Source: Thermoanaerobaculia bacterium
GTDB taxonomy: Bacteria > Acidobacteriota > Thermoanaerobaculia > Gp7-AA8
DNA length: 58,831 bases
Direction of reading: 5' to 3'
NCBI GenBank assembly: GCA_049298815.1
Contig: JBAQWH010000652.1
Span: 1 to 58,831 of the forward strand
Positions within the stretch are counted from its first letter, which is position 1. Each line of letters begins with the position of its first letter. This document shows, one piece after another, positions 12,946 through 57,348 of the stretch. Under the pieces are notes generated by a model, which saw only the letters and a program-made list of their open reading frames with translations, did no database searches and was not told where the DNA came from. A program made the position numbers and the translations under genes.

Positions 12946-13074
12946 TCACCGGTGCCTGCCACGTTTCCGCGTCCCTTCGGTCACGACGTCGAAGTGCCGG
13001 CGGGTTTCGGAATGAGCTGCGGCATTCTCCTGCCTCATGGTTTCGAGGAGGTGTTTAAGATCGTCGTCCGGCAT
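12946..13074 (-). pseudogene. 5' fragment of a paralog of the 108-aa coiled-coil gene
   Basis: Translation MPDDDLKHLLETMRQENAAAHSETRRHFDVVTEGTRK parallels MTDDDLKRLFDSMRQENAAAHSDTRRHFEVVAEGTRK. It then diverges and stops after 42 codons. Confidence 0.5.
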
Positions 13075-13111
13075 CGAGGCAATTCTACGGCGAGGAAAGA
13101 GGCGAGGGAGT

Positions 13112-13187
13112 TGGTAGCGCATACGGGATTCGAACCCGTGTTACCGCCGTGAGAGGGCGGCGTCCTAGACCCCTAGACGAATGCGCC
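13112..13187 (-). tRNA. tRNA-Glu (anticodon CUC), CCA encoded
   Basis: 76-nt cloverleaf folded by hand. Acceptor GGCGCAT/ATGCGCT, anticodon stem CCGCC/GGCGG with loop CUCUCAC, T arm ACGGG-TTCGAAT-CCCGT, 3' ACCA. Confidence 0.9.
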
Positions 13188-13459
13188 AGATTGGCAGGGA
13201 CGCGGAAGATACCGGAGGTAACCTCCACAGTCAAGCGCGGTTAACTCATGGAAAGGCAGGCACATTCCCGCCTCCCCACCCGATGCTGCCGCTGGATGAC
13301 AAGTTTCCGTTTCCGCTCGGTTTCCAGCCACGACACCCTTTGGATGGAAGGGTTTTGCTAGTGACCTTGCTAGTGGCGGGTGGAGCGTTCTCCGCGTCCA
13401 TGCCGACGAGTTATTTGGCACCGACGCTCGCACGGCATGGACGCCGAGTAGACGCGGAC

Positions 13460-23634: not shown

Positions 23635-23806
23635 CGGAATCCTCGTGCTGACGACTACTCGAAGGGCGCGAGCGCTCGGTGATGGACGACTCTTCGTATT
23701 CTGCCATCAAGCTGTCAGAATCCGCCGAGTTCAGATCGGTCTTCGGTGCGACGTCGCGGTTCGACGTGCAGCCGTTCGAAGGCGATGGCCGACGCTCAGG
23801 AGAGAC

Positions 23807-30600: not shown

Positions 30601-30690
30601 GAGTTCAGCGACAACGACTCGTTCCGGCGCTGGGTCACTGACACCGTCTTCTCGATCACGTACGACAAGACTGCTGGACCACCTCCGTAG
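27682..30690 (+). CDS. hsdR: type I restriction enzyme R subunit HsdR
   Basis: N-terminal PD-(D/E)xK (LDLALFINGLPVATFELKN). Helicase motifs QHSAGSGKSNS, IIIDEAHSSQ, FAFTATP and QTGYDEPLL. The GTG start overlaps the upstream stop (GTGA). Confidence 0.92.
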   Translation: MKTDTSEAGLEALIVTAMTGRAEVPSDDEVLDASLLYGGTGWILGHWKDYDRDYAVDLKQLAAFVAATQPKVADALALEHDSPNRQKFLARLQGEITKRGIIDVLRHGVKHGPLHVDLFYGTPSPGNAKAEERFAANRFSVTRQVRYSKDETQLALDLALFINGLPVATFELKNSLTKQTVQDAVEQYQRDRDPRELLFQFGRCILHCAVDDHEVRFCTHLKGKGSWFLPFNKGWNDGAGNPPNPNGLKTDYLWKETLTPRGLTEIIENYAQVVEKKDPKTGRVNREQIFPRYHQLDVVRKLLSAAKADGVGKRYLIQHSAGSGKSNSIAWLAHQLIGLTRDEKGVFDSIIVITDRILLDRQIRDTIKQFAQVGATVGHADHSGDLRQFIASGKKIIISTVQKFPVILKEINEESEHRKRTFAIIIDEAHSSQGGKASAAVNEALSVSGTVDEDETTEDRINRIMESRKFLPNASYFAFTATPKNKTLEIFGVPYDEGGERKHRAFHPYTMKQAIEEGFILDVLRFFTRVESYYKLVKTTSDDPEFDTKRAKKKLRRYVESHDHAIQLKAEIMVDHFHEQVIALNKIGGKARAMVVTSSIERAIQYYRAMSAYLTERKSPYKAIVAFSDTEIDGQKVTESMLNGFPSNKIPDNIREDPYRFLVCADKFQTGYDEPLLHTMYVDKPLSGIKAVQTLSRLNRARPQKYDVFVLDFMNDAATIEAAFADYYRTTILSEETDPNKLHDLKAALDGYQIYSIDQIEALVAYYLGGSDRDKLDPILDTCVANYVSQLDEDGQVDFKGKAKAFTRTYGFLSAVLPYTSAEWEKLSIFLNFLVPKLPAPKEEDLSKGILEAIDMDSYRVEKQSTMRIQLPDADAEIGPVPTSGGGHKPEPELDRLSNIIRTFNDQFGNIAWSDQDRVHRLVTQEIPAKVAADVAYQNAVKNSDKQNAKIEHDKALLRAVTSLLKDDTQFFKEFSDNDSFRRWVTDTVFSITYDKTAGPPP

Positions 30691-30797
30691 GCACCGGCGC
30701 TTGCGCCGAGACCCGAGATGGTGGAGAAAGGCCAGCGGACTGGTGACTCCGTTGCTCGTTTGGCTGTTTCGACCGCAGTCGGTGCCAAAGGTGCTGC

Positions 30798-31958
30798 ATG
30801 TCGGACTTCGTAGACCCTCGCGATCACCCGCAGCCTCCAGCGGTTCGCAGGCTCCCGTCGACCGAGTTGGACGCTCTGGAGGAGTTGTCAAAGCTCTGCC
30901 GGTCAGGACGTCTGTACGCGGTCGAGCAGTGGATCAAGGAAGGCAAGCCGCTCTACGCCGAGAACTACTCGCGAGGACGCGGGCGAAGGGTTCAAAGCGC
31001 GCTCTCCGTCGCGATCGAGACGAAGCAGGTCGACCTCGCGTTGCTCCTGCTCTGCAACGGCTTTCCACCCGACGCCGGTGGTGAGTCTCTTCTCGACGAC
31101 GCGGTCCGTGATCGGCAAGAGGATTTCGTCGAACTGCTCATGAAGTGGGGCGCCGATCCGTTGCGCCTGAATCCATACGACGTCCTCGACAGCTACGACG
31201 CCGACCTGTACGAGCGCTTCTGGACCCTCGGATTGGATTTCGCCCGCAACCACGCCCTCGCCCGGATGCTCGCTGGCCAGTCATCGAATCGTCCCGCGTA
31301 TGGATGGGCGCGGCGGCACAACACTGAGCCGAAGGTAGCGAGGGAGCTGGCCATCGCTCTCGTCCACGCGGTGGCCGAGAACCGCGAAAGAGCCGTAGCC
31401 CTGCTCGTCTGGGCTGGAGCAGATCCTCGAAGGCCAGCCCCAGACTTGCGATACATGCGAGCCGACGAGGATGAGCCCGACGAGGACTGTTTGACCGCCA
31501 TCGAGTACGCGGTGATGTACGGCTACGGCCATCTGCTCAAGACACTCAAGCCGCACCCGACTCGCGACAACTTCGAGAGGCTCTGGGCGTGGGTCTGCGA
31601 TGAAACCGCGATCGACTACCTCGGGAAGCTCGCGCGCCCCGAGGACTGGTCGGCCGTCCTTACCCGCAATCTGGACCACGCTCTTTCCCGGTACTCAGGC
31701 GACGCGTCCCGGAAGTGCGTCGAGAAGCTGACGGTCTCGTACGGCGCTCGGCTCACGGCGATGACACCTGAACGCATCGCTCAGTTCCGGCGCGACGTCG
31801 TCCGGTCGGATAACGAATCGGGCTGCCGGTGGGTCCTGCGATGGATGAGTTACGAGGAGACATGCGAGCCATCTGTGTTCGCCGAGCTGACACGGACTCC
31901 ATCCGTTCGTGCGAAGCTGAACTCCCTTCACATCCGAGACGCACGATACCGGTACTAA
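30798..31958 (+). CDS. ankyrin-repeat-like protein (putative)
   Basis: Repeated helix-turn motifs of the type ALSVAIETKQVDLALLLLCNGFPPD and DDAVRDRQEDFVELLMKWGADP. Motif-level call. Confidence 0.5.
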   Translation: MSDFVDPRDHPQPPAVRRLPSTELDALEELSKLCRSGRLYAVEQWIKEGKPLYAENYSRGRGRRVQSALSVAIETKQVDLALLLLCNGFPPDAGGESLLDDAVRDRQEDFVELLMKWGADPLRLNPYDVLDSYDADLYERFWTLGLDFARNHALARMLAGQSSNRPAYGWARRHNTEPKVARELAIALVHAVAENRERAVALLVWAGADPRRPAPDLRYMRADEDEPDEDCLTAIEYAVMYGYGHLLKTLKPHPTRDNFERLWAWVCDETAIDYLGKLARPEDWSAVLTRNLDHALSRYSGDASRKCVEKLTVSYGARLTAMTPERIAQFRRDVVRSDNESGCRWVLRWMSYEETCEPSVFAELTRTPSVRAKLNSLHIRDARYRY

Positions 31959-31974
31959 CCGCGTGGAGGCGACG

Positions 31975-33135
31975 ATGTACGCCAGATACGAGCAACTGAC
32001 GCGTCAAGAGCTTTACGAGCAGATCTGGTCGGTTCCGGCGACGAAGCTGAGCGAGCGGTTTGGCCTTTCCGGGCGTGGTCTCGCGAAGCTGTGCGAGCGG
32101 CACGAGATCCCCGTTCCCGATCGGGGATGGTGGGCGAAGAAGGCGGCCGGTCAAGATGTGAAGCAGTTGCCGCTGCCGAAGCCAAGCAATCCGTATTTGG
32201 ACCGGATCGAAGTAAGGGTGCGCGAAGACTGGCGTACCTACGTCAGCGAGGATGAGCTGAAGTGGTTCGAGCAGCAGATCGCGGCAGAGCCGAGCCGTCC
32301 ACCGCTCATCGTTCGCGAAGAAGACGATTCGCGTCACCCGCTGATCGTCCGCGCTCGGCGCGAGCGGAAGGACAGCGCTCCTGCTCCGCTCCACTTCGCT
32401 CTCGACGTCAGCAAGGAGCAGCGACCTCGCGCGCTACGGCTTGCGGCTGCCATTGTTGAGGGATGCGAGCAGAGGGATTACTCGTTCGCGCCCGGTCCCG
32501 ATGCTGCGACCGGTGAGGCCACAGTCGTCATCCTCGGCCAGCACATTGGGGTGGCGGTCGTGGAGCCGTATGCGAAGGTCCCACACGTTCTCACGAAGGC
32601 CGAGGCAAGGGAGAAGGCGGTCGGGCGCGGCTGGGGCATCCCTGATTTCGACTCGGTCAGGAGTGGGACTCTGGCCATCGCGCTCACCCACTCGGCCGAC
32701 GGCGAGCGCCGGACGTTCAGCGCGAAGTCCGACCAGCCGCTGGAGGCCACGCTTCCGGAGTTCTTTAAAGCTCTGCCGAAGATCGCGCTGCGCATGAAGG
32801 CTGACAAGAACTGGCACGCCGAACAGGAACGCATTCGAAAGGAGGAAGCCGATCGCCGTGCCGAATTGGAGCGCCTCCGTCGGGAAGAACAGGCCCGGCT
32901 TGCGGCCGAGAAGCGGCGGCGGAACGAACTCCTTCGCGCGAGTGCTTCGCTTCGCCGGTCGAACGACATCCTCGCACTCGTGACCGCCGTCGAGGCGGCT
33001 GCTGAAGAGCGGGGGCTTCTCGACAAAATAGCCGCGTGGGCGCGCTATGCGCAGACCGTAGCGAACGACCTGAACCCCGTCGATCCGATTCTCGTCGCGG
33101 AGACACACGTTTCGCAGCGGACCCCGAGCAAATAA
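31975..33135 (+). CDS. hypothetical protein with an N-terminal HTH-like region and a C-terminal Arg/Glu coiled coil
   Basis: ATG with a GGAGG RBS at 31975. ELYEQIWSVPATKLSERFGLSGRGLAKLCERHEIPVPDRGWW followed by EQERIRKEEADRRAELERLRREEQARLAAEKRRR. Confidence 0.6.
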   Translation: MYARYEQLTRQELYEQIWSVPATKLSERFGLSGRGLAKLCERHEIPVPDRGWWAKKAAGQDVKQLPLPKPSNPYLDRIEVRVREDWRTYVSEDELKWFEQQIAAEPSRPPLIVREEDDSRHPLIVRARRERKDSAPAPLHFALDVSKEQRPRALRLAAAIVEGCEQRDYSFAPGPDAATGEATVVILGQHIGVAVVEPYAKVPHVLTKAEAREKAVGRGWGIPDFDSVRSGTLAIALTHSADGERRTFSAKSDQPLEATLPEFFKALPKIALRMKADKNWHAEQERIRKEEADRRAELERLRREEQARLAAEKRRRNELLRASASLRRSNDILALVTAVEAAAEERGLLDKIAAWARYAQTVANDLNPVDPILVAETHVSQRTPSK

Positions 33136-33237
33136 ACGACGAGATCACCTCCAAGTTGATTCGGAGCGGCGGCGTTCCGAGAGCTTGGACGACCTACGAG
33201 CACGCAGGAGATAGGTGCTGCGCTTCGATTTTCCGCC

Positions 33238-33867
33238 CTATGCTCCGTCGACAAGTAACTTCGCCGCACCCAGCAGGCCGGTCGTGATCTGCTCGTAGCG
33301 CGAAGTAGGCGGGGCACCGGAGAACTGTCCGCGAAGAAAAGCAGCAGGGTGTCTTTCCCGAGGCGCCAAAGGGGTGTTCCCGATCACGCGCTTCTCGAAC
33401 TTCTCTTGGCTGAATCGACTACGGTGCGCGATCGCATTCCGAATAGCATGCGCGCGACCGATCAGATCTCGCTGCGTCATTGACAACGAAGAGAACGGGC
33501 GACCCCCACGGAGGAACGTCTGGGCCCGTTCCAGAGTGTTCTCGATAGGAAGCCAGTCTACGTATCTTTTCGGGCCAAAACCGATTAGGAGTTCTCGTGC
33601 GATGGGATAGGACCTGATCGACACGCGCGGTTGCGAGCGTCGCCTTTTCGTCGATCGCGGATCGCTGATCAGCAGCGTCATGAAGAGGTCTTCGATGAAC
33701 ACCTCGAATGAGGTGAAGCTGCTCAGGAAGAGACTTTCATGGAGTTGCTCGGACACTCTTACCGGAAGCGCACCTGTCAGAACCAACGGTTCAACTCGGC
33801 CGCGAGTCTGGTTGAGCGAGTTGAACCGCGTCAGCAGTTTTTGAAAAAGCTCACTTGGCTCTGGCAC
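33238..33867 (-). CDS. HEPN-like nuclease (RiboL-PSP / MAE_28990-like) partner of DUF262
   Basis: Rx4H motif in AHAIRNAIAHRS. Overlaps the DUF262 gene by 17 nt. Confidence 0.6.
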   Translation of the reverse strand: MPEPSELFQKLLTRFNSLNQTRGRVEPLVLTGALPVRVSEQLHESLFLSSFTSFEVFIEDLFMTLLISDPRSTKRRRSQPRVSIRSYPIARELLIGFGPKRYVDWLPIENTLERAQTFLRGGRPFSSLSMTQRDLIGRAHAIRNAIAHRSRFSQEKFEKRVIGNTPLAPRERHPAAFLRGQFSGAPPTSRYEQITTGLLGAAKLLVDGA

Positions 33868-34936
33868 GTTTGACTTGCTCGTTCAAGAACCGCAGTCGTG
33901 TCTCGCGTGCCGGGTGGTGGTTCGTCGCACCTCGTAGCACTTCTGCGACATCGTCAGGCACGCTGCCCGTCTCGATCAACTCTGAAGCTCGCCTTACTGC
34001 CTCTGCCGCGCCTCGGGGAGCCGTCTTGGCCTTCATTCTGGTCAAGGAGGAACCGAGCCCGAACAGCAGGTCGTAGTAGAACGTGAAGAGCGTGTGAAAC
34101 AGCGGCTTGCGACGAAACTGGGAAGATGGCAGGTCCTTCCCGAGCTGGAGAGCAATAGCGTCAAACACGGCGCGGAAACGGTTCGCAACCTCTCCTGACT
34201 TCGGAAAATGGTCATCGAACAGCTCGTACACTTCGTGGATCAGTTTCAAGTCCTTACCATGCACGCCGTTCATCATGGTCAGGATCATGTCGCCCGTCTC
34301 CTCGACCTCCAGCATGCGGGCTATGTCGGTCTCGTTGAATACTCGCCAGTCGCGCCACCGATCAAGTTGCTCATAGGCGAGCTGGTAGCAGATGGTCTTG
34401 AAGGCACCGAAAAACTCGGCGTTCAGTAGCTCTTGGTTGTTCAGCTTGAACCCTGTCGAGTTCATACGACCGAAAATTTGGAGGACCTCCCGATCCTCTG
34501 CGTCATGGGGAAGGACGTGCACGCTGAGTTCGTAATTCAGGATCGCGACACGTACCTCCTTGGAGAGCTGAGAGAAGTTCAATCCGGAGATCGCCGGGTT
34601 GTGAACACGCTCAACGACGAAGGCATCACGCTCACCGTCGAAGTCCTTGAGGGACTGGGGTTCTACGAAGGAGATGAGCGTCCGTAGTCGCTGCTGACCG
34701 TCCACAACTTCTCGTTCAGGTTCCAGAGAGGTGGGGTTCGTCCTTTCCCGCAGGAAGATGATCGGCATGGGTATGCCGCGCACGACCGTGTCGATGAGAA
34801 GCGATTTTGCCTTGCGGGGCCAGACGGGCCGTCGCTGAAACGCGGGGCTCAGGATGAGCGAACCGACGCGATTCCACGTCAAGAAATCCGAGACCTTGAA
34901 CACTCGCGGGATGCTGATCACGGTCGAATTCTGCAC
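33851..34936 (-). CDS. DUF262 (ParB-like nuclease/NTPase, GmrSD N-terminal type) protein
   Basis: LQRRPVW-type motif (FQRRPVWPRKAKSLLIDTVVRGIPMPIIF) and VVDGQQRLRTLISF. Confidence 0.85.
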   Translation of the reverse strand: MQNSTVISIPRVFKVSDFLTWNRVGSLILSPAFQRRPVWPRKAKSLLIDTVVRGIPMPIIFLRERTNPTSLEPEREVVDGQQRLRTLISFVEPQSLKDFDGERDAFVVERVHNPAISGLNFSQLSKEVRVAILNYELSVHVLPHDAEDREVLQIFGRMNSTGFKLNNQELLNAEFFGAFKTICYQLAYEQLDRWRDWRVFNETDIARMLEVEETGDMILTMMNGVHGKDLKLIHEVYELFDDHFPKSGEVANRFRAVFDAIALQLGKDLPSSQFRRKPLFHTLFTFYYDLLFGLGSSLTRMKAKTAPRGAAEAVRRASELIETGSVPDDVAEVLRGATNHHPARETRLRFLNEQVKRARAK

Positions 34937-35117: not shown

Positions 35118-35738
35118 ATGGCCAAGCTCAAACTCGTCCAGCCGGAGAAATCGGCAAAGTTCCAGCCGCCACGTCGGAAGGCGAACAGCGAGACCCGCTC
35201 GCGGGAGTACCTCACCGTGCCCGAGGTCCGGAAGCTCCGGGACGGCGCGCGGTCAACCGGCCGGAACCCTCACCGCGACGGCCTGCTTGTCCTGATGCTC
35301 TTCCGTCACGGCTTGAGGGTCACCGAAGAGGCATCGCTCACGTGGGACGACATCCACTTCGATGACGGCACCATGTTCGTCCGCCGGGCAAAGAACGGCC
35401 GGGAGTCCCGGCACTTCATGGAGGGGGACGAGATCCGGGAGCTGAAGAAGCTCAAGCGCGAGTCGGCCTCGTCCCGCTTCGTCTTCTGCTCTGAGCGCGG
35501 AGGGCCGCTCTCGAACCGGTCGATCCACCACATCGTTAAGAAGGCTGGCGAGGAAGCCGGTCTCCCCTTCCCCGTTCACCCGCACATGCTCCGGCACGCG
35601 AAGGGTTACCAGCTCGCCCAAAACGGCGCCGACACCCGAGCGATTCAGGGTTACCTTGGCCACCGCGACATCAAGAGCACGGTGATCTACACCGAGTTGG
35701 ACCCGAACCGGTTCAAGGGCTTCGGTAAGGACCTTTAG
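35118..35738 (+). CDS. small tyrosine recombinase (FimB/FimE-size)
   Basis: Box I RHGLRVTE, HMLRHAKG, GHRDIKSTVIY with the catalytic Tyr. 206 aa. Confidence 0.85.
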   Translation: MAKLKLVQPEKSAKFQPPRRKANSETRSREYLTVPEVRKLRDGARSTGRNPHRDGLLVLMLFRHGLRVTEEASLTWDDIHFDDGTMFVRRAKNGRESRHFMEGDEIRELKKLKRESASSRFVFCSERGGPLSNRSIHHIVKKAGEEAGLPFPVHPHMLRHAKGYQLAQNGADTRAIQGYLGHRDIKSTVIYTELDPNRFKGFGKDL

Positions 35739-36307
35739 TCGGACAGCATCGGGCGCCTCGGCGCCGACAACTTCCCCTCCTTCTCAAGGAAGGTCCTGAC
35801 GCGCTCGTCGGTGAGTGCGCCCTCGCCGCTCGCTTGCGGGTTGCGCTCGATCTCCACATCCCACACCGCCCGCACGAGCGCCTCGATCTCGGTCAAGCAG
35901 TTCGGGTCCACCGCCCGATAGGACTCTGTCAGCGAGGCAGCCGCAGAGGTGTACGGCAACAGCCACGACCCGAAGTAGTGCCATACCGCGTCGGCTTCCA
36001 CGACCTCTTTGCGAAGCAGAAAGCCGAGGGTCTCGAAGAAGTTCAGGACGTCCCTGACTGCCTCGGCTTCGAGCGGGTCGCTCTGCCTGTCGAGGAGGTC
36101 CGCTGCCGCCTGTCGGCGGGTCTCGCGGAACTCTGCGGAGTCCCAGCGCGCGTCCATCGTCCCGAGCACGTCGAGCCCTCGGGAGAATCTCGCTCGTCGC
36201 CACTCGGCGATCTGCATTCCGACCGAGACCACGATGGCGAGCGCGGCGACCACAACCGACAACGCTTCAATCTCCATGCACTCAGTGTCGGTGAAGGAGG
36301 ATGGCAT
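35735..36307 (-). CDS. single-pass membrane protein (DUF4760-like, tentative)
   Basis: The start was chosen at MPSSF. One TM helix (ALSVVVAALAIVVSVGMQIA) is followed by a helical domain. The longer track ORF would overlap the ImmA gene. Confidence 0.5.
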   Translation of the reverse strand: MPSSFTDTECMEIEALSVVVAALAIVVSVGMQIAEWRRARFSRGLDVLGTMDARWDSAEFRETRRQAAADLLDRQSDPLEAEAVRDVLNFFETLGFLLRKEVVEADAVWHYFGSWLLPYTSAAASLTESYRAVDPNCLTEIEALVRAVWDVEIERNPQASGEGALTDERVRTFLEKEGKLSAPRRPMLSD

Positions 36308-36482
36308 CGCGGTATGCACCCTCTCGCAGCCGTGTGATGCACCGGCCGACGCGACCGCTCTCCTGTGACAGCACGGAACTTCCAAACGGTGGAGGGCGCA
36401 ACGCACCCACCGGCGGCGAAGTGCCACGCACGCCGAGGCTTCCGCAGGTGCGCCGCTGATGGAGCGAGGCGAAATGTTGTCC

Positions 36483-37355
36483 CTATTCGCCAAATAGCGG
36501 CAGCGAGCGACGGCGAGACGAGTCACGTTCGGCGCAGACGTCAGGCCCCCAAAGGGAAACCAGTTTGTCGGAGAACTTCACCACCTGAAACCGGACCTCC
36601 GGACGGTAGAACTGGATACCCCTTTCGTCGCGATAGCTCACGTAAGCAGTCCCCACTCTTACTCCGCCCTCCCAAGCCGAAGGAAGAATGGAATCGTCCT
36701 CCCACAGCCACGGTCGTGTGACACCACCGATCACTCGCAGCAACGAGAACGACCCGTCCCGCATACGGTGCCATTCTGTCAGTTCGCACTTCCAGCAGTC
36801 GAGTGCTCGCAGGCGCAGCAGCATCGCAGACTTGCTGACGGAGTACTCGTCAGCGAGGGCCTGCAGGGTCTCGACCGAGACGGGGCGATCCTTCGCACTC
36901 TTCTTGAGACTGCGCGCGGGCATCAGCAGCTCGCTCGCACCGACGTCGCAGAGCCGCTCTTCATCTGGAAACACGTCGTGCGGTCTAAATTTGATCTCGG
37001 GAACTAGCTCGTAGAAAAACGTGTGACAGATCTCGTGCGCCAGCGTAAAGCGGCGACGATTCTCCGATGCGCTCGGATCAATCAAGATGCGAAAGCCGTC
37101 GGCGAACGAGTTGCCGAGCGGCTCCAACGCCCCGGCGACGCCGGGTCGAGCCACCTTGTCAGTAGACCTGACATTTCGCGTTTTTAGAAGGAACTGCAGA
37201 CGCGCGTCTCGCGGTCCCCGCCTAGGGTAAGGCCTAGACGCCCTTCGTACGAGATCGCACATCACCCGCTCTGCTGAGAGATTAGCCCGTCCGGCTCGTG
37301 CGATGAACTTCTCGACGAGCTCACTCCGCGACGACAGTCTAGAAGAGCTTCCCAC
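36483..37355 (-). CDS. ImmA/IrrE-family zinc metallopeptidase
   Basis: HEXXH in FTLAHEICHTFF with a downstream ELLMP motif. Overlaps the upstream XRE gene by 17 nt. Confidence 0.8.
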   Translation of the reverse strand: MGSSSRLSSRSELVEKFIARAGRANLSAERVMCDLVRRASRPYPRRGPRDARLQFLLKTRNVRSTDKVARPGVAGALEPLGNSFADGFRILIDPSASENRRRFTLAHEICHTFFYELVPEIKFRPHDVFPDEERLCDVGASELLMPARSLKKSAKDRPVSVETLQALADEYSVSKSAMLLRLRALDCWKCELTEWHRMRDGSFSLLRVIGGVTRPWLWEDDSILPSAWEGGVRVGTAYVSYRDERGIQFYRPEVRFQVVKFSDKLVSLWGPDVCAERDSSRRRSLPLFGE

Positions 37356-38523
37356 TCGGTCCGCCTTTCGTTGTCACCTTCTGGTAGGCGCGATCCCAAT
37401 CAGCTTCTTTCATCGCCGCTGTGTACGTCTTCTGCGAGACCTCCGAGTGCTTTCTCGCCGCGCCGAAGCTGCGGCGCCAGTCGTCCCTCAGGCCGATCGC
37501 GGTCTTGGCATCCAGATCGGATCCGAGTTCCACCCACCGGCGCCATGAAGCATTGCTCTCGACCCAGACCGGATCGGTTTCGACCGATTCGCCGAGCAGG
37601 TAGCCGACACTCACATCGAGGAGGACGCTCATTCGGCGAAGCAACCGGGCGCTCGGATTTGTGACGGCAAACGGCTCGTGCATGAGTCGCTGCAGATACC
37701 CCAGACTGACCCCGAGGTCGTCTGCAAACTGGCTGTAGTCTCCGGACCAGTCGTTGATGAGCTTCGTCAGCCGAGGACCGAACGAGTCGTCATTCATCCC
37801 TCGGTACAGCGCGCGGTGCCGGAAGTGAAGACGTCGCAACTGCGTGAGACCCTCCGTGAGAGCTGCACGATCGATCGTGACGCCGATGTCGAGGTTACCT
37901 TCATATTGGATGTCGTGGCTGTGGATGAATGAACCCAACATCATCCGCGACAATCCACGCTTCGGAATCAGCCGCACGGCAGGAAGGCCCGCTTGAGTAA
38001 TGATCTCGTTCTCCTGGCCGACGCCATAACTGTTCGCCGCGCAAAAGATGATCACGCCGTCGAACGTGGAGGCTCGAGAGCGGTCGGTCAGGTAGACCAA
38101 GTCCGCGTCGAGATCGGGATTGTCGCGAGGGTGCGTGAAGTTCCCAGGCCAGTAGATCGAGAATGGCCGCGAGCTGAATTCAGTACTGCTCGCTACATCC
38201 TGAACCTGACCCACGACGCGCCGGAGTTCAGCATCGGCTCGCGGCGACAGTCCCGTCAGCGGCGACGCCAAGTAGAGGAGGATCTCTGGCGCGAGACGGT
38301 CGGTCTCGTTGAGGATGTCGCCGACCCTGAGTCCAAGCGCCTCGAACAGCTTACGCAGCTCAGGTTCAGACGGTTCTGCGACTCGGGTCATTAACTTAGA
38401 AATTCGCGATTGCTTCACGCCGGACCACGCCTCAAGTTGCGTCTGGGTGTAGTTGCGGTAGTGAATCAACTGCAAAAGACGCCCTAAGGCGTACTCGACC
38501 TGCTCCCTGCTCAGTGCGCGCAT
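37339..38523 (-). CDS. XRE-HTH / nucleoside 2-deoxyribosyltransferase-like / XRE-HTH fusion protein
   Basis: The start was set at MRALSREQ after a GGAGG RBS. HTH 1 is YTQTQLEAWSGVKQSRISKL. The central region has ILLYLASPLTG and DGVIIFCAANSYGVGQENEI, resembling the NDT YLAGP and D.GT..E.G motifs. HTH 2 is YSQFADDLGVSLGYLQRL. Confidence 0.7.
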   Translation of the reverse strand: MRALSREQVEYALGRLLQLIHYRNYTQTQLEAWSGVKQSRISKLMTRVAEPSEPELRKLFEALGLRVGDILNETDRLAPEILLYLASPLTGLSPRADAELRRVVGQVQDVASSTEFSSRPFSIYWPGNFTHPRDNPDLDADLVYLTDRSRASTFDGVIIFCAANSYGVGQENEIITQAGLPAVRLIPKRGLSRMMLGSFIHSHDIQYEGNLDIGVTIDRAALTEGLTQLRRLHFRHRALYRGMNDDSFGPRLTKLINDWSGDYSQFADDLGVSLGYLQRLMHEPFAVTNPSARLLRRMSVLLDVSVGYLLGESVETDPVWVESNASWRRWVELGSDLDAKTAIGLRDDWRRSFGAARKHSEVSQKTYTAAMKEADWDRAYQKVTTKGGPSGKLF

Positions 38524-38697
38524 GTGAACCTCCACGCAGCCACGATAGGGCAACCTTGGGGTTCCAGCCTGAATTCCGGTGGAATACTATGTCGCTTCTA
38601 CTATTCCATCGTAAGTTACTGACAACATAGAATGTTATGGCACCAGCATTCAACACCAACCCGCTTAGAATGATTACTGTACACGCAGGAGACGACC

Positions 38698-39648: not shown

Positions 39649-39867
39649 ATGAAGAACGACGAGGAGTTGCTGGCGCTCAGCGCGTATCGCGATCTCTGGA
39701 TGGACTGGCGGTCGGGTGTGCTGACGCTCGCTGAAGCCGCATTCCTCGCGCGCCGGTGTGAATTCGAGACTCGGCTCATCGACCTCGGCGTGCCGCGCTG
39801 GCTGCGACCTGTCGCAGCTTGGCTCTTCGACTACCTCTTCGAAGACGACGCCATCGCCGGGACCTAA
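39649..39867 (+). CDS. hypothetical 72-aa protein
   Basis: ATG after GAGGCGAGGA. MKNDEELLALSAYRDLWMDW... looks protein-like, unlike the upstream part of the track ORF. Confidence 0.3.
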   Translation: MKNDEELLALSAYRDLWMDWRSGVLTLAEAAFLARRCEFETRLIDLGVPRWLRPVAAWLFDYLFEDDAIAGT

Positions 39868-40230
39868 CGTTGGGCCGGTGTCGATCCCGGTGCAGCTCGT
39901 ACGTACCAGAAGCGCACCGGGACGACGGCGTCATCGCCGTCGTCCCTCATGGTTCACGATCGTGTTGGCGACACTCGTGAAGATCGCAGCCGGGTGACGG
40001 GTAACAACGACAGACTCGCTGAACAAGCTAGTCCACCACATCCACGAGACGATGATCAGGATCGTCTACAGGACGCGCTGGTGCATGAACCTGCACAAGG
40101 AGGACCTCAGCGTCGTCCTCGACGGCATTGATCGCCACAGCGGCTCAGAACGCGCCGGTAGGAACCGACCCACAGGCTCGCGGTGGCGTGGGCCTCGTGG
40201 AATGTAGCGGCAGAGCTTGGGCGACTGGCG

Positions 40231-40785
40231 TTACACGCGCGCTGTGCGCCGACCAAGCAGAAATGCAAGGATCACCGCCACTCCCGCGATACCGGCCGAC
40301 ACATAGACGCGTCCGCGCCGATCGCCCGGATCCACGCCTGCCATAACAGACTTACCGGCCTTGAGGGCTTCGCCCAGAAGATTGGGAAGCGCGAGAACAA
40401 CATACAGTGCGAAGGCACCTAGGTAGACGAACCCGACCTGAGCCCAAAACCACGTGGAGTGATCCGGGGGCGAAGGTACGAACGGCCGACTATTGCCGTA
40501 CCACAGATGGTGCCCGACTTCACGAACGGTCTCTCCCGCACCTTCCGGTATAAATAGAGCTGGCCCCGGATAGAGCATCGCCAGTACCAATGAAATCGTC
40601 CCCGCGAGGAACAAAAAGCGAAGACGTCCGAGGTGAGTACCTAGTATGGACGCAACCGCGTCCTTCATCGTGTAGGGAGACGGTTCGAACTTCTTGAGCG
40701 CAAATACGGTCAGAACCAGCCCGGCAAGCAAGGCACTCGAAATACCGACGAACTTTGCGACAAATATTAGCTCAGACATGGACAC
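40231..40785 (-). CDS. polytopic membrane protein
   Basis: 184-aa ORF with four or more hydrophobic helices. It lies 6 nt downstream of the previous membrane gene, in a visibly AT-richer segment. Confidence 0.6.
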   Translation of the reverse strand: MSMSELIFVAKFVGISSALLAGLVLTVFALKKFEPSPYTMKDAVASILGTHLGRLRFLFLAGTISLVLAMLYPGPALFIPEGAGETVREVGHHLWYGNSRPFVPSPPDHSTWFWAQVGFVYLGAFALYVVLALPNLLGEALKAGKSVMAGVDPGDRRGRVYVSAGIAGVAVILAFLLGRRTARV

Positions 40786-40791
40786 TCCTAG

Positions 40792-41313
40792 CTATGATCT
40801 GCTGAGGCCAGCTCCTAATGTGGGGACTGAGCTTTCAAAGAGGACTTGCTTTACGAGCCCGATAACTCCTGTTACGGCGAGAGATTGAGCAGGAGCTACA
40901 ACCAAGGCGAACAGCCACGTCGCCGGTGTCATTATGTCCGGCATCATGCCGCGCTCCAGAATCAGCCACGTCACCCCTCCTATGAGAAGCGCGGCTATAC
41001 CGAGCACTAAGCAGACGCCTGAAACCATAGCCAAGAAGCCAAACCGTTCGAGCGTGCTTCGCGCGGGGAGAGCAGCGATCAGAAAAAGAACTAAGCCGAA
41101 AAGCAGCTTGGCTGGCGCCATAACGAGATACGGATACGTCGGAATGCGTACGTCAGCACGCACCATCGCGGCTAGGTAGCGCGTGCCGTCTACCCCAGTG
41201 GCGAAGCTCACACACGCGACAACCAGCAGCACGGTGACTAGCAGGACACGGGTCCTGCTTGCATGAGAGCCTGACATCGAAGGATCTCCTTTCATCGCGT
41301 TGGACAAACTCAC
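40792..41313 (-). CDS. polytopic membrane protein
   Basis: 173-aa ORF with several hydrophobic helices. Confidence 0.6.
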   Translation of the reverse strand: MSLSNAMKGDPSMSGSHASRTRVLLVTVLLVVACVSFATGVDGTRYLAAMVRADVRIPTYPYLVMAPAKLLFGLVLFLIAALPARSTLERFGFLAMVSGVCLVLGIAALLIGGVTWLILERGMMPDIMTPATWLFALVVAPAQSLAVTGVIGLVKQVLFESSVPTLGAGLSRS

Positions 41314-41464
41314 ACGGTTTCAGCCGCCCAACGGCTCTGCGGTTCAGCGGCTTCGACCCGCGCGCAGAGCATGATGACGCCTATTCTAATTGCTAATTGG
41401 CGAACCGCCCAGACAAGCCGGTGGTCCCACAGCGTCATTCCGGCAATCGGGCCATCTAAAGACA

Positions 41465-41905
41465 TCATCGAAAAGCGTCGTCGATGTCGCCGAGTTCTTC
41501 CCAGCCGTCACTCTTGAGACGACGGATCTTCGGAGCGCCACCCTTCAGCCACGAGCCGAGGAGCACGTCGCGTGCGTGGTATCGCCGCTTCACTGCACGC
41601 AGGCGTTCGAGGTCCTCGTCAGTCGGCATCGGCGCGCTGCCACCCTTGATCTGGATCAGGATGATCTCGAAGTTGTCCCCGCGCTTGCCGCACCCGCTGA
41701 CCACCCGATGGTCTTTGCGGATCGCCATCAGGTCGACGATGCCGACCGACTCCGCACCGGACTCGCCGCAGAACGTCACGAGCTGCCATTTCGTACGCGA
41801 TACGGCCTCGGTGATCCGTTTCTTCACCAACGTGACGGCCCACCGCGCCGTGCGTGCGGCCTTCTGCTGTGCGGCGATCCAGCCGATCGGAGTCACGAGC
41901 GGCAT
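41465..41905 (-). CDS. small PD-(D/E)xK-like (resolvase/VRR-NUC-size) protein, tentative
   Basis: GIVDLMAIRK...FEIILIQIKGG fits D-x(n)-(E/Q)-x-K. 146 aa. Confidence 0.5.
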   Translation of the reverse strand: MPLVTPIGWIAAQQKAARTARWAVTLVKKRITEAVSRTKWQLVTFCGESGAESVGIVDLMAIRKDHRVVSGCGKRGDNFEIILIQIKGGSAPMPTDEDLERLRAVKRRYHARDVLLGSWLKGGAPKIRRLKSDGWEELGDIDDAFR

Positions 41906-42012
41906 GATACCGGGGCTGATCGGACGCCCGACAAAGGAATGTAATTTCGAAACCCAGAAGGTGGAAGGCTGGGATGTTAGGCGCCGTTGAGGTGCTATCG
42001 AACAGCGCGCCG

Positions 42013-42480
42013 CTACGGGTGCTCGATCAGTATCGGTCCCTCCGGGACGAACGGCTTACCGTACGCTTTCCTCTTCCCGAAGCCGGTAAAATGCGAGACA
42101 GGAATGTGGTCGTTCCGGGGGAGCATGCGGAGGTCTTCGACCTCCCAGAACACCGCCCACCAGCCGTCGTTGTCGGAGACGTGCGTTGCGGTCGAAGGCG
42201 GTCGGTACCGCATACCGGCAGGGTGCGCCCCTCCGCTGCTCTCAACGTGGGCGACGTATCTAGCGACCCATGATGCCACCAGCGCCGCGTCGTCGTGGGA
42301 TGCGTAGATGTACACGTCGACAGGGAGACCCGCTCGAAGATCATCGAGTTCCCGGAACACCTGCCATGCTCGGCTGCCGAACGCGACGCGGCCCTCCCTC
42401 TCCGCAACTAACCGGCCATCATCGAGGTATACGCGAGGCACGGGTGCGAGAAGCGCGACGTTACGTGCTGTTTCGATCAT
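42013..42480 (-). CDS. hypothetical protein, 155 aa
   Basis: Starts 18 nt after the EVE-DUF3883 stop. No recognised motif. Confidence 0.6.
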   Translation of the reverse strand: MIETARNVALLAPVPRVYLDDGRLVAEREGRVAFGSRAWQVFRELDDLRAGLPVDVYIYASHDDAALVASWVARYVAHVESSGGAHPAGMRYRPPSTATHVSDNDGWWAVFWEVEDLRMLPRNDHIPVSHFTGFGKRKAYGKPFVPEGPILIEHP

Positions 42481-42498
42481 GTGAACCCCCGGAGGCTC

Positions 42499-43785
42499 CT
42501 ACGCTACGGTGGCTGCGACGTCGTCAGCCATGATCGTGGTGACCAGCAACCCGTTCGCGTGCGGAACCGTGTACTCGTACGTCGTCACACGCAGGTGCTC
42601 CCGCGCGGGCGACCAAGCCTCGATGACGATGGCGTTACCACCCAAGGCCTCGGGACCTTCTTTTCCCGGCCGCACGACGATCCGCGTGACTAGGAACAGG
42701 TCCGTACGCCATGCGGACAATTCGGCGTTCACGACCTCGTTGGCGGTCAGCGTCACCCTCTCACCGTTCGAAGTAGTGCCCTTCACCTCGACGCGAACCT
42801 CCAGACCGTTCTTGACGCACCGGTAGTCGTACGGCTTCGTCTCAGCCGTCCTCTCCGCTTCGAAACCCTGCTTCACGTAGTGCTCATACGCTAGCGCCAT
42901 CGCCCGCTCCTCGACAGCCCTGCGAACAGCTACGTCTGGCTGTCGACCGGCGCGTCTCGCGAACACCTTCGGGGCCGGTTCAGGTGCGACTGCTGGAGGC
43001 TCGGCAAGGTTCGGTGCCGCGTGGTTCCCTTCTGGCCACAGCGCGTTGAAGGCATACGTCAACTCGTCGACTAGAAGCTCACCGCGAGCGGGGTCGAAGA
43101 ACTCGCTCCACACCTCGCGGTCCGTTTTGGAGACCGCAGGCATCCCGGCACCCTCCACCGTGGGGTCAAGGTGGCGGAAGTTCATCACCTTCGCGTACGT
43201 GCTCTCGACGGCTCGGCCAATGCGAACGGCCGTCGCTGCGATCGGCGAGTTCGGTGCCACCGAGACCTCGCCATGCTTGGTTCGCTCGTAAACCAACAAC
43301 GCCGCGATGTCTTCTTCGCGGGTCCAGTCACGGCCCGTCCTCTGCCACAGTGCTTCGAGACGACGGCCTTCGGCATCGCCCAGCTCGTAGTTCGTCTCGC
43401 TCGCCATCTTCAGGATGCGCAGGCTGCTCGCAACGGGATCGCGCAGCAGCCACTCACGCTTCACGACCTGCTTGCTGTTGGAGACGGCCTCGACCTTCAC
43501 ACTCACTCGAAGGTCCAGATCAGCGCCACCGTCGCTCTTCCAGAGCTGAACCGATACCTCGTCTTCTGGTCGCAGTCTCGGCGGCTCGGTGATCGTCCCG
43601 CTGGCCATCACTCCTGCATTGCCTCGCTTCTTGCCTGCTGAGCGCCAGAAGTAGACGCGGTCGCCAACGTGCATCCGGTCGGCCAGATGCTTTTGCCTGA
43701 CGGTCCACAGAACATCGGCACCGGGCTTCAGGTAGGCATCGAGATCGAAGTCGTCTGGGTTGCCCTGAAAGATCCACGCGTTCAT
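42499..43785 (-). CDS. EVE (PUA-like) domain fused to a DUF3883 PD-(D/E)xK nuclease domain
   Basis: N-terminus MNAWIFQGNPDDFDLD...GDRVYFWRS (EVE-like). The middle segment RIGRAVESTYAKVMNFRHLDP...SKTDREVWSEF is as seen in COG3183-type restriction proteins. C-terminus YDYRCVKNGLEVRVEVKGTTS...LTANEV (DUF3883-like). Confidence 0.75.
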   Translation of the reverse strand: MNAWIFQGNPDDFDLDAYLKPGADVLWTVRQKHLADRMHVGDRVYFWRSAGKKRGNAGVMASGTITEPPRLRPEDEVSVQLWKSDGGADLDLRVSVKVEAVSNSKQVVKREWLLRDPVASSLRILKMASETNYELGDAEGRRLEALWQRTGRDWTREEDIAALLVYERTKHGEVSVAPNSPIAATAVRIGRAVESTYAKVMNFRHLDPTVEGAGMPAVSKTDREVWSEFFDPARGELLVDELTYAFNALWPEGNHAAPNLAEPPAVAPEPAPKVFARRAGRQPDVAVRRAVEERAMALAYEHYVKQGFEAERTAETKPYDYRCVKNGLEVRVEVKGTTSNGERVTLTANEVVNAELSAWRTDLFLVTRIVVRPGKEGPEALGGNAIVIEAWSPAREHLRVTTYEYTVPHANGLLVTTIMADDVAATVA

Positions 43786-43845
43786 GCAGTAGAACCTTGC
43801 ACCATTGCGATGCGCTCCGCAACGACCGGCAGCATGACTCGGGAG

Positions 43846-44670
43846 TTACCTTCTCACCGCGTCGATGAAGTCGCAGAACTCCTTCTGGATGGCGTTGCTG
43901 GGCGCCAGCATCCCGCTTCCGAGTTGAACAACGAGCTGAACTCGCACTCCGCTGCCGGAGCCCGTGATCGTGATGTTGAACGGGATGGTCTTCCCGCTTC
44001 CAATCACGCCTTGATTTGCGGAGATGACCCCGGCCTCTCGGCTCGAACTGACGACCTGCCATCCTCCCCCAGCCATCTGAGCGATGAGAACGTCGAAGGC
44101 TTGCGTGCGCGTCGTTCCTGTTACGTCAGCGAAGGTCGTGAACTTGTAGCCGACAACGAAGCTCCCACCCTTCAGGAAGTTCTTCACGCAGGGATCATCG
44201 GTCGAGCGCCCGATCGCCGTCGCGTCCTGTTGCTTTTCGGCAGCTTCCTGCTGACGCTCCTCTTCCTCACTCTCGCGCGTCACCGCGCTTTTCAACCGAC
44301 TCTTCACACGCGACATGCGTCCCGGTTGTGCCGCTGGAGCAGTCTCTTCGTTCGTAGGGGTTGGAGTTAGGGCTGCTGACGGTGACGGCGAAGGTCGTGA
44401 CGCCGGTGCGGCCCACGCGAGCATGGCCTCGATGACATCGTCCGGCACTTTGTTCTTCTTCAGAGCGACAAGCCCTCCAGTGGTCGTGTCGAACTCTGCG
44501 GCGCTAGCACCTCGGATCTTCTTGATGACCAACTCGGGTCCGAGACCTGCCTCGATCAGCGCGATGACGTCCGCGTTGGTCATCTGTTGCTCGATCGGGG
44601 CAGTGGAGTCCTGAGACATGGTTGATACAGCGCACAGGCATAGCAGCAGTGCAAGCACGACGTGTCGCAT
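43846..44670 (-). CDS. secreted hypothetical protein
   Basis: Signal-like MRHVVLALLLCLCAVSTMSQ. 274 aa. Confidence 0.65.
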   Translation of the reverse strand: MRHVVLALLLCLCAVSTMSQDSTAPIEQQMTNADVIALIEAGLGPELVIKKIRGASAAEFDTTTGGLVALKKNKVPDDVIEAMLAWAAPASRPSPSPSAALTPTPTNEETAPAAQPGRMSRVKSRLKSAVTRESEEEERQQEAAEKQQDATAIGRSTDDPCVKNFLKGGSFVVGYKFTTFADVTGTTRTQAFDVLIAQMAGGGWQVVSSSREAGVISANQGVIGSGKTIPFNITITGSGSGVRVQLVVQLGSGMLAPSNAIQKEFCDFIDAVRR

Positions 44671-44767
44671 TAAAAGATCCCCTCCCTCGAATGTACGTAG
44701 GGTCGATATCCTCGTCGCTCCGCGCTGTGCTCCGGCTCACTCATGAACGGGCTACTCCCCCGCTGGG

Positions 44768-45052
44768 GTGACGACGTTCTCGTTCCGTTCGGCACGAGAC
44801 GGTGGCGACTGGGACCACGATCCCGAGCCGGATCTCGACGATGTATCTGAAGGCCCCGAATGGTTTGTCGAGTGCGGTGAGTGCGGCCACGAGATCGAGT
44901 TCGGCTGGTCCGCGCCGGGTCGGGGCGGTCGTCTCTGCCCAGTCGAGCGCAGTGACGTTGACCCGTCCGCGACGTGGCCAGAGCCCCGCTTCACGGCGGA
45001 CTGGGAGCGGCGGCGATGGGTGCTCGGAACTGATTCCGGGACCGACGGCTGA
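44768..45052 (+). CDS. hypothetical zinc-ribbon-like protein
   Basis: ECGECGHEIEFGW...CPVE. It overlaps a convergent ORF, so the call is weak. Confidence 0.35.
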   Translation: MTTFSFRSARDGGDWDHDPEPDLDDVSEGPEWFVECGECGHEIEFGWSAPGRGGRLCPVERSDVDPSATWPEPRFTADWERRRWVLGTDSGTDG

Positions 45053-45359
45053 CGCCGTCCAGCCTCGACAGAGACGGCACACCCGCGATGGCGTTCGCCA
45101 CCTCGACTACGAGCGACTCGAACCTCTTCATTCGGTTCTTCGTCTTCGATCGGAAGAGCGCCTTTCCGTCGTCGAGGTAGAGCGTGCCCTGAAGCCATCG
45201 AGCTTCGGTTCGAACACCCACTCCGGGCCGACCGGAATGGTCTTTCGGAACACGGGGACGACCGGCTCGATGATCGGCAACATCACCGACCGGGAGGTTC
45301 AACCGCTGTGCCCGATGGCGTGATCGCTGTCACGCTCCCTCAACTTTTCTACGTTGCGG

Positions 45360-45405
45360 CGGACCCTCTAAGGAAAAAGTTCCCTTATTGAGATGTGAGA
45401 GGGAA
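45360..45405 (+). promoter_or_regulatory. reiterated operator/promoter-like motif, copy 1
   Basis: CGGACCCTCTAAGGAAAAAGTTCCCTTA core with an internal imperfect inverted repeat TAAGGAA/TTCCCTTA. It lies 120 nt upstream of the Rep-like gene. Confidence 0.5.
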
Positions 45406-47678: not shown

Positions 47679-47901
47679 GCTCTACCGAGCCTCCGATCGG
47701 GTCCGTGAACGCCCCGTGCTCCACCTCTCTGCTGGCGTGCTGGCGCACGACTTCTCGGTGCGCGTCCGGGCAGTTGGCTGGAAGACGGCTCTCGCTCCGG
47801 CGCGGCGGCGAAGAGGGCGATGCAGGCACCTTCATCGTGCCCACGAGGTCCTCGCCCTGACGCCGCGTCAGCGACGACGAAATAAAAAAAATCGCTAGAA
47901 G

Positions 47902-47946
47902 CGGACCCTGTAAGGAAAAAGTTCCCTTAATAGAGTGTGAGGGAAA
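47902..47946 (+). promoter_or_regulatory. reiterated operator/promoter-like motif, copy 2
   Basis: CGGACCCTGTAAGGAAAAAGTTCCCTTA. An A8 tract lies just upstream. The motif is 75 nt upstream of the 48021 start. Confidence 0.5.
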
Positions 47947-54449: not shown

Positions 54450-54481
54450 ATGTTACGGAACCGTGAACGATCCCCGATGCG

Positions 54482-54520
54482 CGGACCCTCTAAGGAAATT
54501 GTTCCCTTAGTACTGGAGGT
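54482..54520 (+). promoter_or_regulatory. reiterated operator/promoter-like motif, copy 3
   Basis: CGGACCCTCTAAGGAAATTGTTCCCTTA, 65 nt upstream of the proposed GTG start of the Xis-like gene. Confidence 0.5.
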
Positions 54521-54584
54521 GCCGAATTCATCGAAGAACAACCGCCCCCACCCGCTCCCGCCGCAGTCACCAGCCAAGTCGAAG

Positions 54585-54944
54585 GTGCTCCAGTTCCCTT
54601 GCGATCAGGAACCGGACGGCCTCGACAACGTCAACGCCGGATTGACGCATCTCCGCACCGCTCTCGCTGAGTATCACGACGCGCTCAGAGATCTCGTCTG
54701 CCTCACCTCCATTCTCCTTCATCGGACGACAGACACGACCCACATCACGATCGAAGAAGCAGCTCGTTACCAGATGGTCTGTACGAAAACGATCAGAAAC
54801 CGGATCAAGCAGGGGAAGCTCACGCTTGAGGTGATCCCCGGCACCAACCGCTCCGGCATTCCGGTCAAGCAGCTCTCCAGCGGATGGGTCGACATGAATC
54901 GCGCCAAGGCGATTCTGCGGCGTAGGGCGGCGGTCAATGGGTAA
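54585..54944 (+). CDS. excisionase-like HTH protein (putative Xis)
   Basis: ITIEEAARYQMVCTKTIRNRIKQGKL HTH. It ends 8 nt inside the integrase gene. The start is uncertain (the track ORF begins at 54450, across the motif). Confidence 0.5.
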   Translation: MLQFPCDQEPDGLDNVNAGLTHLRTALAEYHDALRDLVCLTSILLHRTTDTTHITIEEAARYQMVCTKTIRNRIKQGKLTLEVIPGTNRSGIPVKQLSSGWVDMNRAKAILRRRAAVNG

Positions 54945-57148: not shown

Positions 57149-57269
57149 GCGCCGTGAGAGGGCGGCGTCCTGGACCCCTAGACGAATGCGCCAGTTTGGC
57201 AGGAACGCGGAAGATACCGGAGGCTTCCTCCGCGGTCAAGGGCGGCTAACGGCTGGGTGGCAGCGCTCA
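57149..57269 (-). repeat. displaced copy of tRNA-Glu nt 1-43 plus about 75 nt of upstream leader
   Basis: 57149-57191 matches 13145-13187 at 42 of 43 positions. The next 31 nt match at 29 of 31, then the similarity decays. Confidence 0.85.
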
Positions 57270-57348
57270 TTCCCACTCAAAATCTACGCAGAGGAGAAGG
57301 TTTGACGGTGGGGCGGCGCCGAGGGACCATCGGTGGCGGAGGTGACCG

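Follow-up and report, generated by a model that had tools for sequence, protein, structure and literature searches.

We analyzed a 58,831-nt stretch of DNA from a Thermoanaerobaculia bacterium (contig JBAQWH010000652.1, assembly GCA_049298815.1; hereafter, the window), focusing on a run of five genes at 40231–43785 that is headed by a gene for a protein with an N-terminal EVE domain and a C-terminal NOV_C nuclease domain (hereafter, EVE-NOV_C). This gene is followed by genes for proteins of 155 and 146 amino acids (aa) and by two genes for membrane proteins of 173 and 184 aa (Table 1). A preliminary description of this DNA had read the five genes as an operon-like system in which a modified-DNA sensor is coupled to membrane effectors. 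The genomic contexts of the homologs lead us to a different reading: the segment is, with high probability, a mosaic of four independently inherited modules carried as cargo of a ~44-kb defense island. Within this mosaic, and at the same, joint level of confidence, the EVE-NOV_C gene, with its observed domains, catalytic residues and solitary habit, is predicted to encode a self-contained type IV modification-dependent endonuclease. The 155-aa gene, the 146-aa gene and the membrane gene pair are the other three modules.

The independence of the modules emerges from the loci in which their relatives reside. We fetched 181 related loci overall, and the tblastn screens, with all seven local proteins as queries, covered 173–179 of them; no locus in these screens contained two of the four modules. 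A genome scan with EVE-NOV_C yielded 80 loci with 10-kb flanks, none of which held relatives of the 274-aa protein encoded upstream or of any protein encoded by the four downstream genes. In the four independent contexts of EVE-NOV_C orthologs, no relative of a downstream gene was found within 5–10 kb: none of the downstream proteins had a match in the Myxococcota locus (L001), the next gene in Sorangium (L170) encodes a tetratricopeptide repeat (TPR) protein and follows after a 230-nt gap, the neighboring gene is convergent in L171/L172, and an AbiJ_NTD3 gene comes next, after 550 nt, in L173. The searches from the other modules gave the same result, with no EVE-NOV_C, 146-aa-type or membrane-type gene in 83 loci carrying the 155-aa family, no member of EVE-NOV_C or another module in nine loci carrying the 146-aa family, and no relative of the EVE, 155-aa or 146-aa proteins in the three loci with homologs of the membrane protein. 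Missing linkage in other genomes is the outcome that the preliminary description had itself named as contrary to its five-gene system, and, with no co-occurrence of the modules in either direction, the proposed coupling of a modified-DNA sensor to membrane effectors is not supported.

The local layout is as that description gave it: the five genes are co-directional (all on the minus strand), 18 nt separate the EVE-NOV_C and 155-aa genes, and 6 nt separate the two membrane genes. From 43785 to 40231, the intergenic gaps measure 18, 107, 151 and 6 nt, and, because the open reading frames (ORFs) are maximal, the gaps of 107 and 151 nt are minimum values. Five genes on the same strand are expected by chance once in 16 cases, which is not unusual in itself. 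The membrane genes do form an AT-richer stretch, and the difference is true but modest: their GC content is 0.567 and 0.575, compared with 0.63–0.64 in the three upstream genes and a window mean of 0.624, and their GC content at third codon positions (GC3) is 0.61, compared with 0.73–0.81. A scan of 39800–44900 for consensus promoters and terminators found none in the intergenic gaps, and the counts were those of the background. Upstream of the EVE-NOV_C gene, at a distance of 60 nt and co-directional with it, lies the gene for the 274-aa protein (43846–44670, minus strand), which has an N-terminal signal-like hydrophobic segment and a low-complexity middle rich in Pro, Ala, Ser and Thr; this protein had no family match and no relative in any fetched locus.

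Both domains of the EVE-NOV_C protein were recovered above the Pfam gathering cutoffs in the hidden Markov model (HMM) searches that the preliminary description had proposed as a check, EVE (PF01878) with an E-value of 9.8e-9 and 35.8 bits (cutoff 23), and NOV_C, which is the same family as DUF3883 (PF13020), with an E-value of 5e-8 and 33.3 bits (cutoff 22.1). A protein search retrieved 16 full-length relatives at 42–49% identity. In an alignment of 17 full-length sequences, residues D320, E333 and K335 of the PD-(D/E)xK site are invariant, as are E292 and E350 in the NOV_C core. The invariant residues of the conserved region between the two domains (hereafter, the middle region) include W147, W154, G190, R191, K199, N202, F203 and D207. 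The EVE-NOV_C protein has no HNH match in Pfam and no DUF3427 match at E-values up to 1, and no methyltransferase gene adjoins its gene in the window. A scan of viral contigs with EVE-NOV_C returned just two partial EVE matches.

In addition to the full-length relatives, about 35 EVE-HNH proteins cover just the N-terminal 54–79% of the EVE-NOV_C query, with 39–49% identity. Residues 1–267 are 44% identical to the Bradyrhizobium EVE-HNH protein P0036 (E = 2e-74), and the alignment stops before the nuclease. The middle region aligns with the N-terminal portion of PDLC04132, a PADLOC model named “HNH”, and the HNH domain of P0036 matches Escherichia coli McrA (6ghc, E = 1.7e-14). Because the similarity to P0036 covers residues 1–267 and ends before the nuclease, the EVE-NOV_C protein is, as judged from these alignments, a nuclease-domain swap, from HNH to PD-(D/E)xK, on a shared sensor module, relative to the commoner EVE-HNH enzymes.

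Several characterized enzymes share part of this architecture. TspA15I, VcaM4I and CmeDI are EVE-HNH enzymes that depend on modified cytosine (PMC6765204, PMC7897488). As in the window protein, one chain holds both an N-terminal EVE sensor and a C-terminal nuclease, a methyltransferase is lacking, and residues 1–267 of the window protein are ~44% identical to many uncharacterized EVE-HNH proteins; however, the nuclease is HNH in this group and PD-(D/E)xK NOV_C/DUF3883 in the window protein. YenY4I (PUA-DUF3427-DUF3883) and McaZI (DUF3427-DUF3883) are modification-dependent restriction endonucleases (MDREs) that likewise depend on modified cytosine and are often found in defense islands or prophages (PMC6765204). 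The window protein has the same C-terminal catalytic family, DUF3883, but lacks DUF3427, its sensor comprising EVE and the unannotated middle region. Furthermore, a purely computational catalogue of putative type IV enzymes already lists EVE-PD(D/E)XK fusions (Bell et al. 2020, PMC7641849), and both the core architecture and the predicted role of these proteins are shared with the window protein, which is thus of a kind already catalogued computationally. Of the type IV-like restriction architecture proposed in the preliminary description, the fusion of EVE and NOV_C with an intact motif stands, and such an architecture has been described before. What this analysis adds to the published list is the assignment to the specific NOV_C subtype, the conserved middle region, and the relation to an EVE-HNH clade by exchange of the nuclease.

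The 155-aa protein had no match in Pfam, NCBIfam, PADLOC or PHROG, and yet it has at least 333 homologs, the best 120 of which are 55–69% identical to it. Foldseek searches of PDB and BFVD with its AlphaFold (AF2) model (predicted local distance difference test [pLDDT] 92.6) matched YTH, ASCH and MJECL36 structures with a probability of 0.9–1.0 and TM-scores of just 0.40–0.50; the top matches were MJECL36, the YTH domains of YTHDC1 and YTHDF2, ZmASCH and viral ASCH proteins. With almost all top matches of this kind, the protein is predicted to adopt a PUA-like (ASCH/YTH/EVE) pseudobarrel fold. Its predicted fold is thus similar to that of the ASCH, YTH and EVE readers, but it shows no profile match to any Pfam PUA-like family. 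Duplication of the EVE module as the origin of the 155-aa gene was considered and rejected, the hhalign probability against the upstream EVE profile being 0.1%. No relatives of the 155-aa family were found in the viral-contig scan.

The 155-aa family is without a fixed partner, and its neighbors vary from locus to locus. It is flanked by 109 non-redundant ORFs, among which the largest shared families span 4–5 loci and consist of integrases, one recurring contig and an unrelated ~400-aa PD-(D/E)xK protein. Even so, its genomic surroundings are conspicuously rich in defense genes. Members of the family lie 1–57 nt from genes of Hma-like, bacteriophage exclusion (BREX; BrxL), DISARM-like (defense island system associated with restriction–modification) and methylase loci, and within ~150–400 nt of GmrSD genes and genes of the cyclic oligonucleotide-based antiphage signaling system (CBASS). 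Specifically, a 155-aa gene is located 25 nt from both an SNF2-NOV_C (HmaA-like) helicase gene and a DUF1156 methylase gene (L161, with the 155-aa-family region at 7280, which is most probably the one locus that gave matches to PADLOC HmaA, HmaB and HmaC at E = 0), 57 nt after a BrxL-MIT_C gene (L106), 17 nt after a gene for an MZB-PLD protein (L099) and 1 nt after a gene for a 962-aa N6_N4 methylase (L150); it precedes a GmrSD_N gene in L113 and stands beside a CBASS CD-NTase and Cap15 in L082 and beside DndB and GIY-YIG genes in L081. The DISARM-like label rests on the MZB-PLD protein and on DrmA/DrmD matches. A family-specific NOV_C HMM found no match among the neighbors of the 155-aa family, the sole NOV_C neighbor being a distant fusion with an SNF2 helicase. 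We also observed an unannotated family of ~350–410 aa, with a conserved D...E-x-K and a weak NucS_C match, that adjoins the 155-aa family in four loci (L098, 1243–2304; L112, 1581–2813; L139, 795–2021; L140, 500–1624), its order and orientation relative to the 155-aa gene varying. This ~400-aa nuclease-like neighbor was considered as a divergent EVE-NOV_C ortholog and rejected, as BLASTP found no similarity.

In the window, the 155-aa gene is probably co-transcribed with the EVE-NOV_C gene, because the gap between them is only 18 nt; in evolution, the two families are clearly independent. Tentatively, and with more doubt than conviction, the 155-aa protein might be the first recognized member of an undescribed, very strongly conserved family of small PUA-like (ASCH/YTH-fold) proteins, encoded by an add-on gene in tight linkage with mechanistically different, modification-dependent defense systems; as a transferable reader of modified bases, or as an enzyme, it might tune or safeguard these systems. 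The scope of this suggestion would be hundreds of metagenomic copies at 55–69% identity, none of them on viral contigs, and the sites that bear on it are between HmaA-/HmaB-like genes, after BrxL, after MZB-PLD, beside PglX/type III-like methylases and GmrSD, and behind EVE-NOV_C.

The 146-aa protein also had no match in Pfam, NCBIfam, PADLOC or PHROG and no useful match in a PDB profile search, and it has at least 614 homologs. Its motif consists of D58 and I-Q-I-K at 84–87; across 30 homologs, E52, D58 and Q85 are invariant and K87 is nearly invariant, so that the second acidic position of the catalytic set is occupied by the invariant Q85. The AlphaFold model (pLDDT 74.7) matched the archaeal Hjc structures 2wcw, 1gef and 2eo0 with a Foldseek probability of 1.0 and TM-scores of 0.41–0.47 by query length and 0.45–0.55 by target length. 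Given the Hjc match and the conserved motif, the D...IQIK nuclease-like core that had been noticed previously appears to be real at the level of the predicted fold. The protein shares with archaeal Hjc the fold match (TM ~0.47) and the order of the acidic and lysine residues, but it is bacterial, has Q85-x-K87 in place of the second acidic residue, shows no Pfam or PDB sequence match, and belongs to a family whose contexts include DUF429, SRAP and an Exo_endo_phos protein, not recombination genes. The family was found in four other contexts, in two of which DUF429 is directly downstream: SRAP, the 146-aa gene and DUF429; an Exo_endo_phos protein, the 146-aa gene and DUF429; a 156-aa gene followed by the 146-aa gene; and BrxC/BrxD-like genes, a helicase and a 227-aa gene followed by the 146-aa gene. 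The DUF429 protein (227 aa) is encoded 21–24 nt downstream of the Hjc-like gene in two independent contexts (L084–L089), and the arrangement of SRAP or Exo_endo_phos, the 146-aa gene and DUF429 hints at a repair-type or nucleic-acid-processing pair. A DUF429 partner was looked for in the window and none was found, and the viral-contig scan returned no relatives of the 146-aa family.

The 173-aa and 184-aa genes are a rare conserved pair of their own. Each protein has about four hydrophobic (transmembrane) segments by hydropathy, in agreement with their earlier designation as polytopic membrane proteins. Among 1.84 billion (1.84e9) representative proteins, the 173-aa protein had three true homologs. 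A tblastn search located a homolog of the 184-aa protein beside that of the 173-aa protein in L178, in reversed order and with a 4-nt overlap (47% identity, E = 9e-30), and in L179, in the same order (37% identity, E = 2e-28); the contig with the third homolog is short and ends where a similar N-terminus begins. Because the two homologs are adjacent in both flanked loci, the membrane pair is a module of its own, and, given three homologs and a differing composition, the membrane family cannot be a conserved partner of families whose members number in the tens to hundreds. No relatives of either the 173-aa or the 184-aa family were found in the viral-contig scans, and tblastn of the 184-aa protein against plasmids gave no match. 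In L177 (2–490), the gene upstream of the 173-aa homolog ends in a C5 DNA methyltransferase-type motif (…QGFPDSW…YRQVGNAFPPPVA…), recognized by eye only.

We propose that the N-terminal EVE domain of the EVE-NOV_C protein would flip a modified base out of the helix and examine it, that this base, to judge from the EVE-HNH enzyme VcaM4I, is most likely a modified cytosine, that the conserved middle region would join this sensor to the nuclease, and that the C-terminal NOV_C PD-(D/E)xK domain would cut the DNA near the modified site, the enzyme acting without a cognate methyltransferase and without partner proteins. The 155-aa PUA-like protein would then be the product of a small add-on gene of many different defense loci, with neither family needing the other; the 146-aa Hjc-like protein would be a separate module that elsewhere occurs beside DUF429 or alone; and the two membrane genes would be a rare two-gene unit of distinct base composition.

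Several considerations weigh against this picture. The independent full-length ortholog contexts that were inspected number only four, many loci of the 155-aa family are short contigs, and absence of co-occurrence elsewhere is not proof that the genes do not cooperate in this island. That the enzyme depends on modification, and on which base, we infer from its domain architecture and by comparison with VcaM4I and TspA15I (PMC7897488, PMC6765204). In PDB, the EVE-NOV_C protein had only weak matches, namely the solved EVE proteins 2g2x (E = 0.11, phmmer with the protein) and 2ar1 (E = 0.012, profile), and 5h6i (E = 0.073, profile), and no VcaM4I chain was among the matches listed for either the single sequence or the profile; the window protein would thus belong to a different EVE subfamily, and, with no detectable sequence similarity between its EVE domain and VcaM4I, its specificity may differ. 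Finally, the 18-nt gap and the PUA-like folds of both proteins allow for a local functional interaction of EVE-NOV_C with the 155-aa protein. We consider it unlikely that the two form a unit whose products work together in this island, in which the 155-aa protein could either read modified bases in addition to the EVE domain, and so widen or restrain specificity, or serve as an immunity or antagonist factor against self-cleavage. Such a unit would fit the short gap, with a G-rich stretch before the 155-aa ATG, the similar GC and GC3 of the two genes, the shared fold type, the frequent position of the 155-aa family 1–57 nt from modification-dependent defense genes (methylases, an HmaA-like NOV_C helicase, BrxL), and its position beside the unrelated ~400-aa PD-(D/E)xK protein in four loci. 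However, the 155-aa gene is absent from all four EVE-NOV_C contexts and EVE-NOV_C from all 83 loci of the 155-aa family, the difference in identity among homologs (55–69% for the 155-aa protein vs 42–49% for the nuclease) argues against co-evolution, and the profiles of the two PUA-like domains are not similar.

The full five-gene system, in which the EVE sensor-nuclease would signal to, or act with, the second nuclease and two membrane effectors in a manner resembling abortive infection, we regard as scarcely probable at all. Membrane effectors are common in other defense systems, and the genes are co-directional within a defense island. Yet this system is contradicted by the lack of co-occurrence in either direction. 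Also against it are intergenic distances of 107 nt and of 151 nt or more, which leave room for separate promoters, the deviating composition of the membrane genes (GC3 of 0.61 vs 0.73–0.81), and the existence of only three membrane homologs anywhere, none near EVE, 155-aa or 146-aa genes. It is also very improbable that EVE-NOV_C is not a DNA restriction enzyme and instead acts on modified RNA or in repair. EVE domains also bind RNA, and the original view of both EVE and PUA domains was that they are RNA binders (PMC6765204), but the gene resides in an island between Mrr, type I restriction–modification (R-M) and GmrSD-like genes and integrases, its sensor module is common to McrA-like HNH nucleases (as represented by the match of the P0036 HNH domain to 6ghc noted above), and DUF3883 is the catalytic domain of the characterized MDRE YenY4I (PMC6765204).

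The mosaic reading is set in an island with the features of a mobile element (Table 1). Two imperfect direct repeats of 125 nt (repeat family D9; 83% identity, spacing 44,005 nt) are putative att-type boundaries of the ~44-kb island, which holds all the defense genes; to the left of the tRNA-Glu gene lie chromosomal signaling genes. The dense defense cluster at 22720–34936 also holds a 988-aa HsdM-like protein and an ankyrin-repeat protein. It is followed, at 35735–38553 on the minus strand, by three overlapping genes for a 404-aa protein with a double helix-turn-helix (HTH), a 290-aa M78/IrrE peptidase and a DUF4760 protein. The double-HTH protein has a weak CapH match and the peptidase matches PADLOC CapP (E = 6e-20). 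An uncharacterized effector may thus be under the control of a regulator pair of the CapH/CapP type here. The island further carries a phage-/plasmid-type replication initiator, a gene of the uracil-DNA glycosylase (UDG) family and integrases. In islands of this kind, same-strand cargo genes of mixed origin are expected.

Table 1. Coordinates of the five-gene run, the domains of EVE-NOV_C and the island features in the window.
Feature	Position	Strand	Remarks
EVE-middle-NOV_C gene	42499..43785	-	428 aa; predicted single-chain type IV endonuclease
EVE (PUA-like) sensor domain	43399..43782	-	residues 2-129, PF01878
Conserved middle region	42985..43347	-	residues ~147-267; without Pfam family; common to EVE-HNH enzymes
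NOV_C/DUF3883 PD-(D/E)xK core	42691..42915	-	residues 291-365, PF13020
155-aa gene	42013..42480	-	predicted PUA-like family member; independent module
146-aa gene	41465..41905	-	predicted Hjc-like PD-(D/E)xK fold; independent module
173-aa membrane gene	40792..41313	-	first of rare conserved two-gene membrane module
184-aa membrane gene	40231..40785	-	second of membrane pair
Left 125-nt imperfect direct repeat	13145..13269		overlaps 5' part of tRNA-Glu(CTC) at 13112-13187
Right 125-nt direct repeat copy	57150..57274		adjoins integrase gene 54937-56250
Mrr	22720-23634		in dense defense cluster 22720-34936
Nucleotidyltransferase and 144-aa gene, embedded before HsdR	26608-27685		type I R-M system
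HsdR	27682-30690		type I R-M system
GmrSD_N protein	33851-34936		followed by 209-aa weakly HEPN-like protein

Additional repeats were observed in the window. A 37-nt sequence resembling a tRNA 3' end occurs in four copies (2596–2632, 3116–3152, 10525–10561 and 13103–13139), and repeats of 130–170 nt with 96–98% identity, ~7.4 kb apart, link 2979–3400 with 10490–10807 and 12965–13095. These repeats, which lie beside tRNA-Glu and enclose genes for GGDEF and PAS histidine-kinase proteins, point to a series of insertions or duplications. A 41-nt repeat (GCGGACCCTCTAAGGAAAAAGTTCCCTTA...) is present at 45359–45399, 47901–47941 and 54481–54521; two copies lie just upstream of plus-strand genes (the replication initiator at 45460 and an HTH_17 gene at 47937), and the remaining copy is situated slightly inside the maximal ORF of the HTH_17 gene at 54450. 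The repeat may serve the mobile element as a common operator or promoter.

To summarize, the principal value of this analysis is a correction: an apparent system of sensor and membrane effectors dissolves into unrelated neighbors once the context in other genomes is checked, and co-directional runs in defense islands should not be read as operons without evidence of co-occurrence. Among the secondary findings, the unannotated 155-aa family, with its presence in BREX, DISARM, Hma and R-M loci, is of greatest interest. The EVE-middle-NOV_C protein itself provides what appears to be a clean natural case of nuclease-domain swapping on a conserved modified-base sensor module, and an easy candidate for new modification-dependent restriction specificities.

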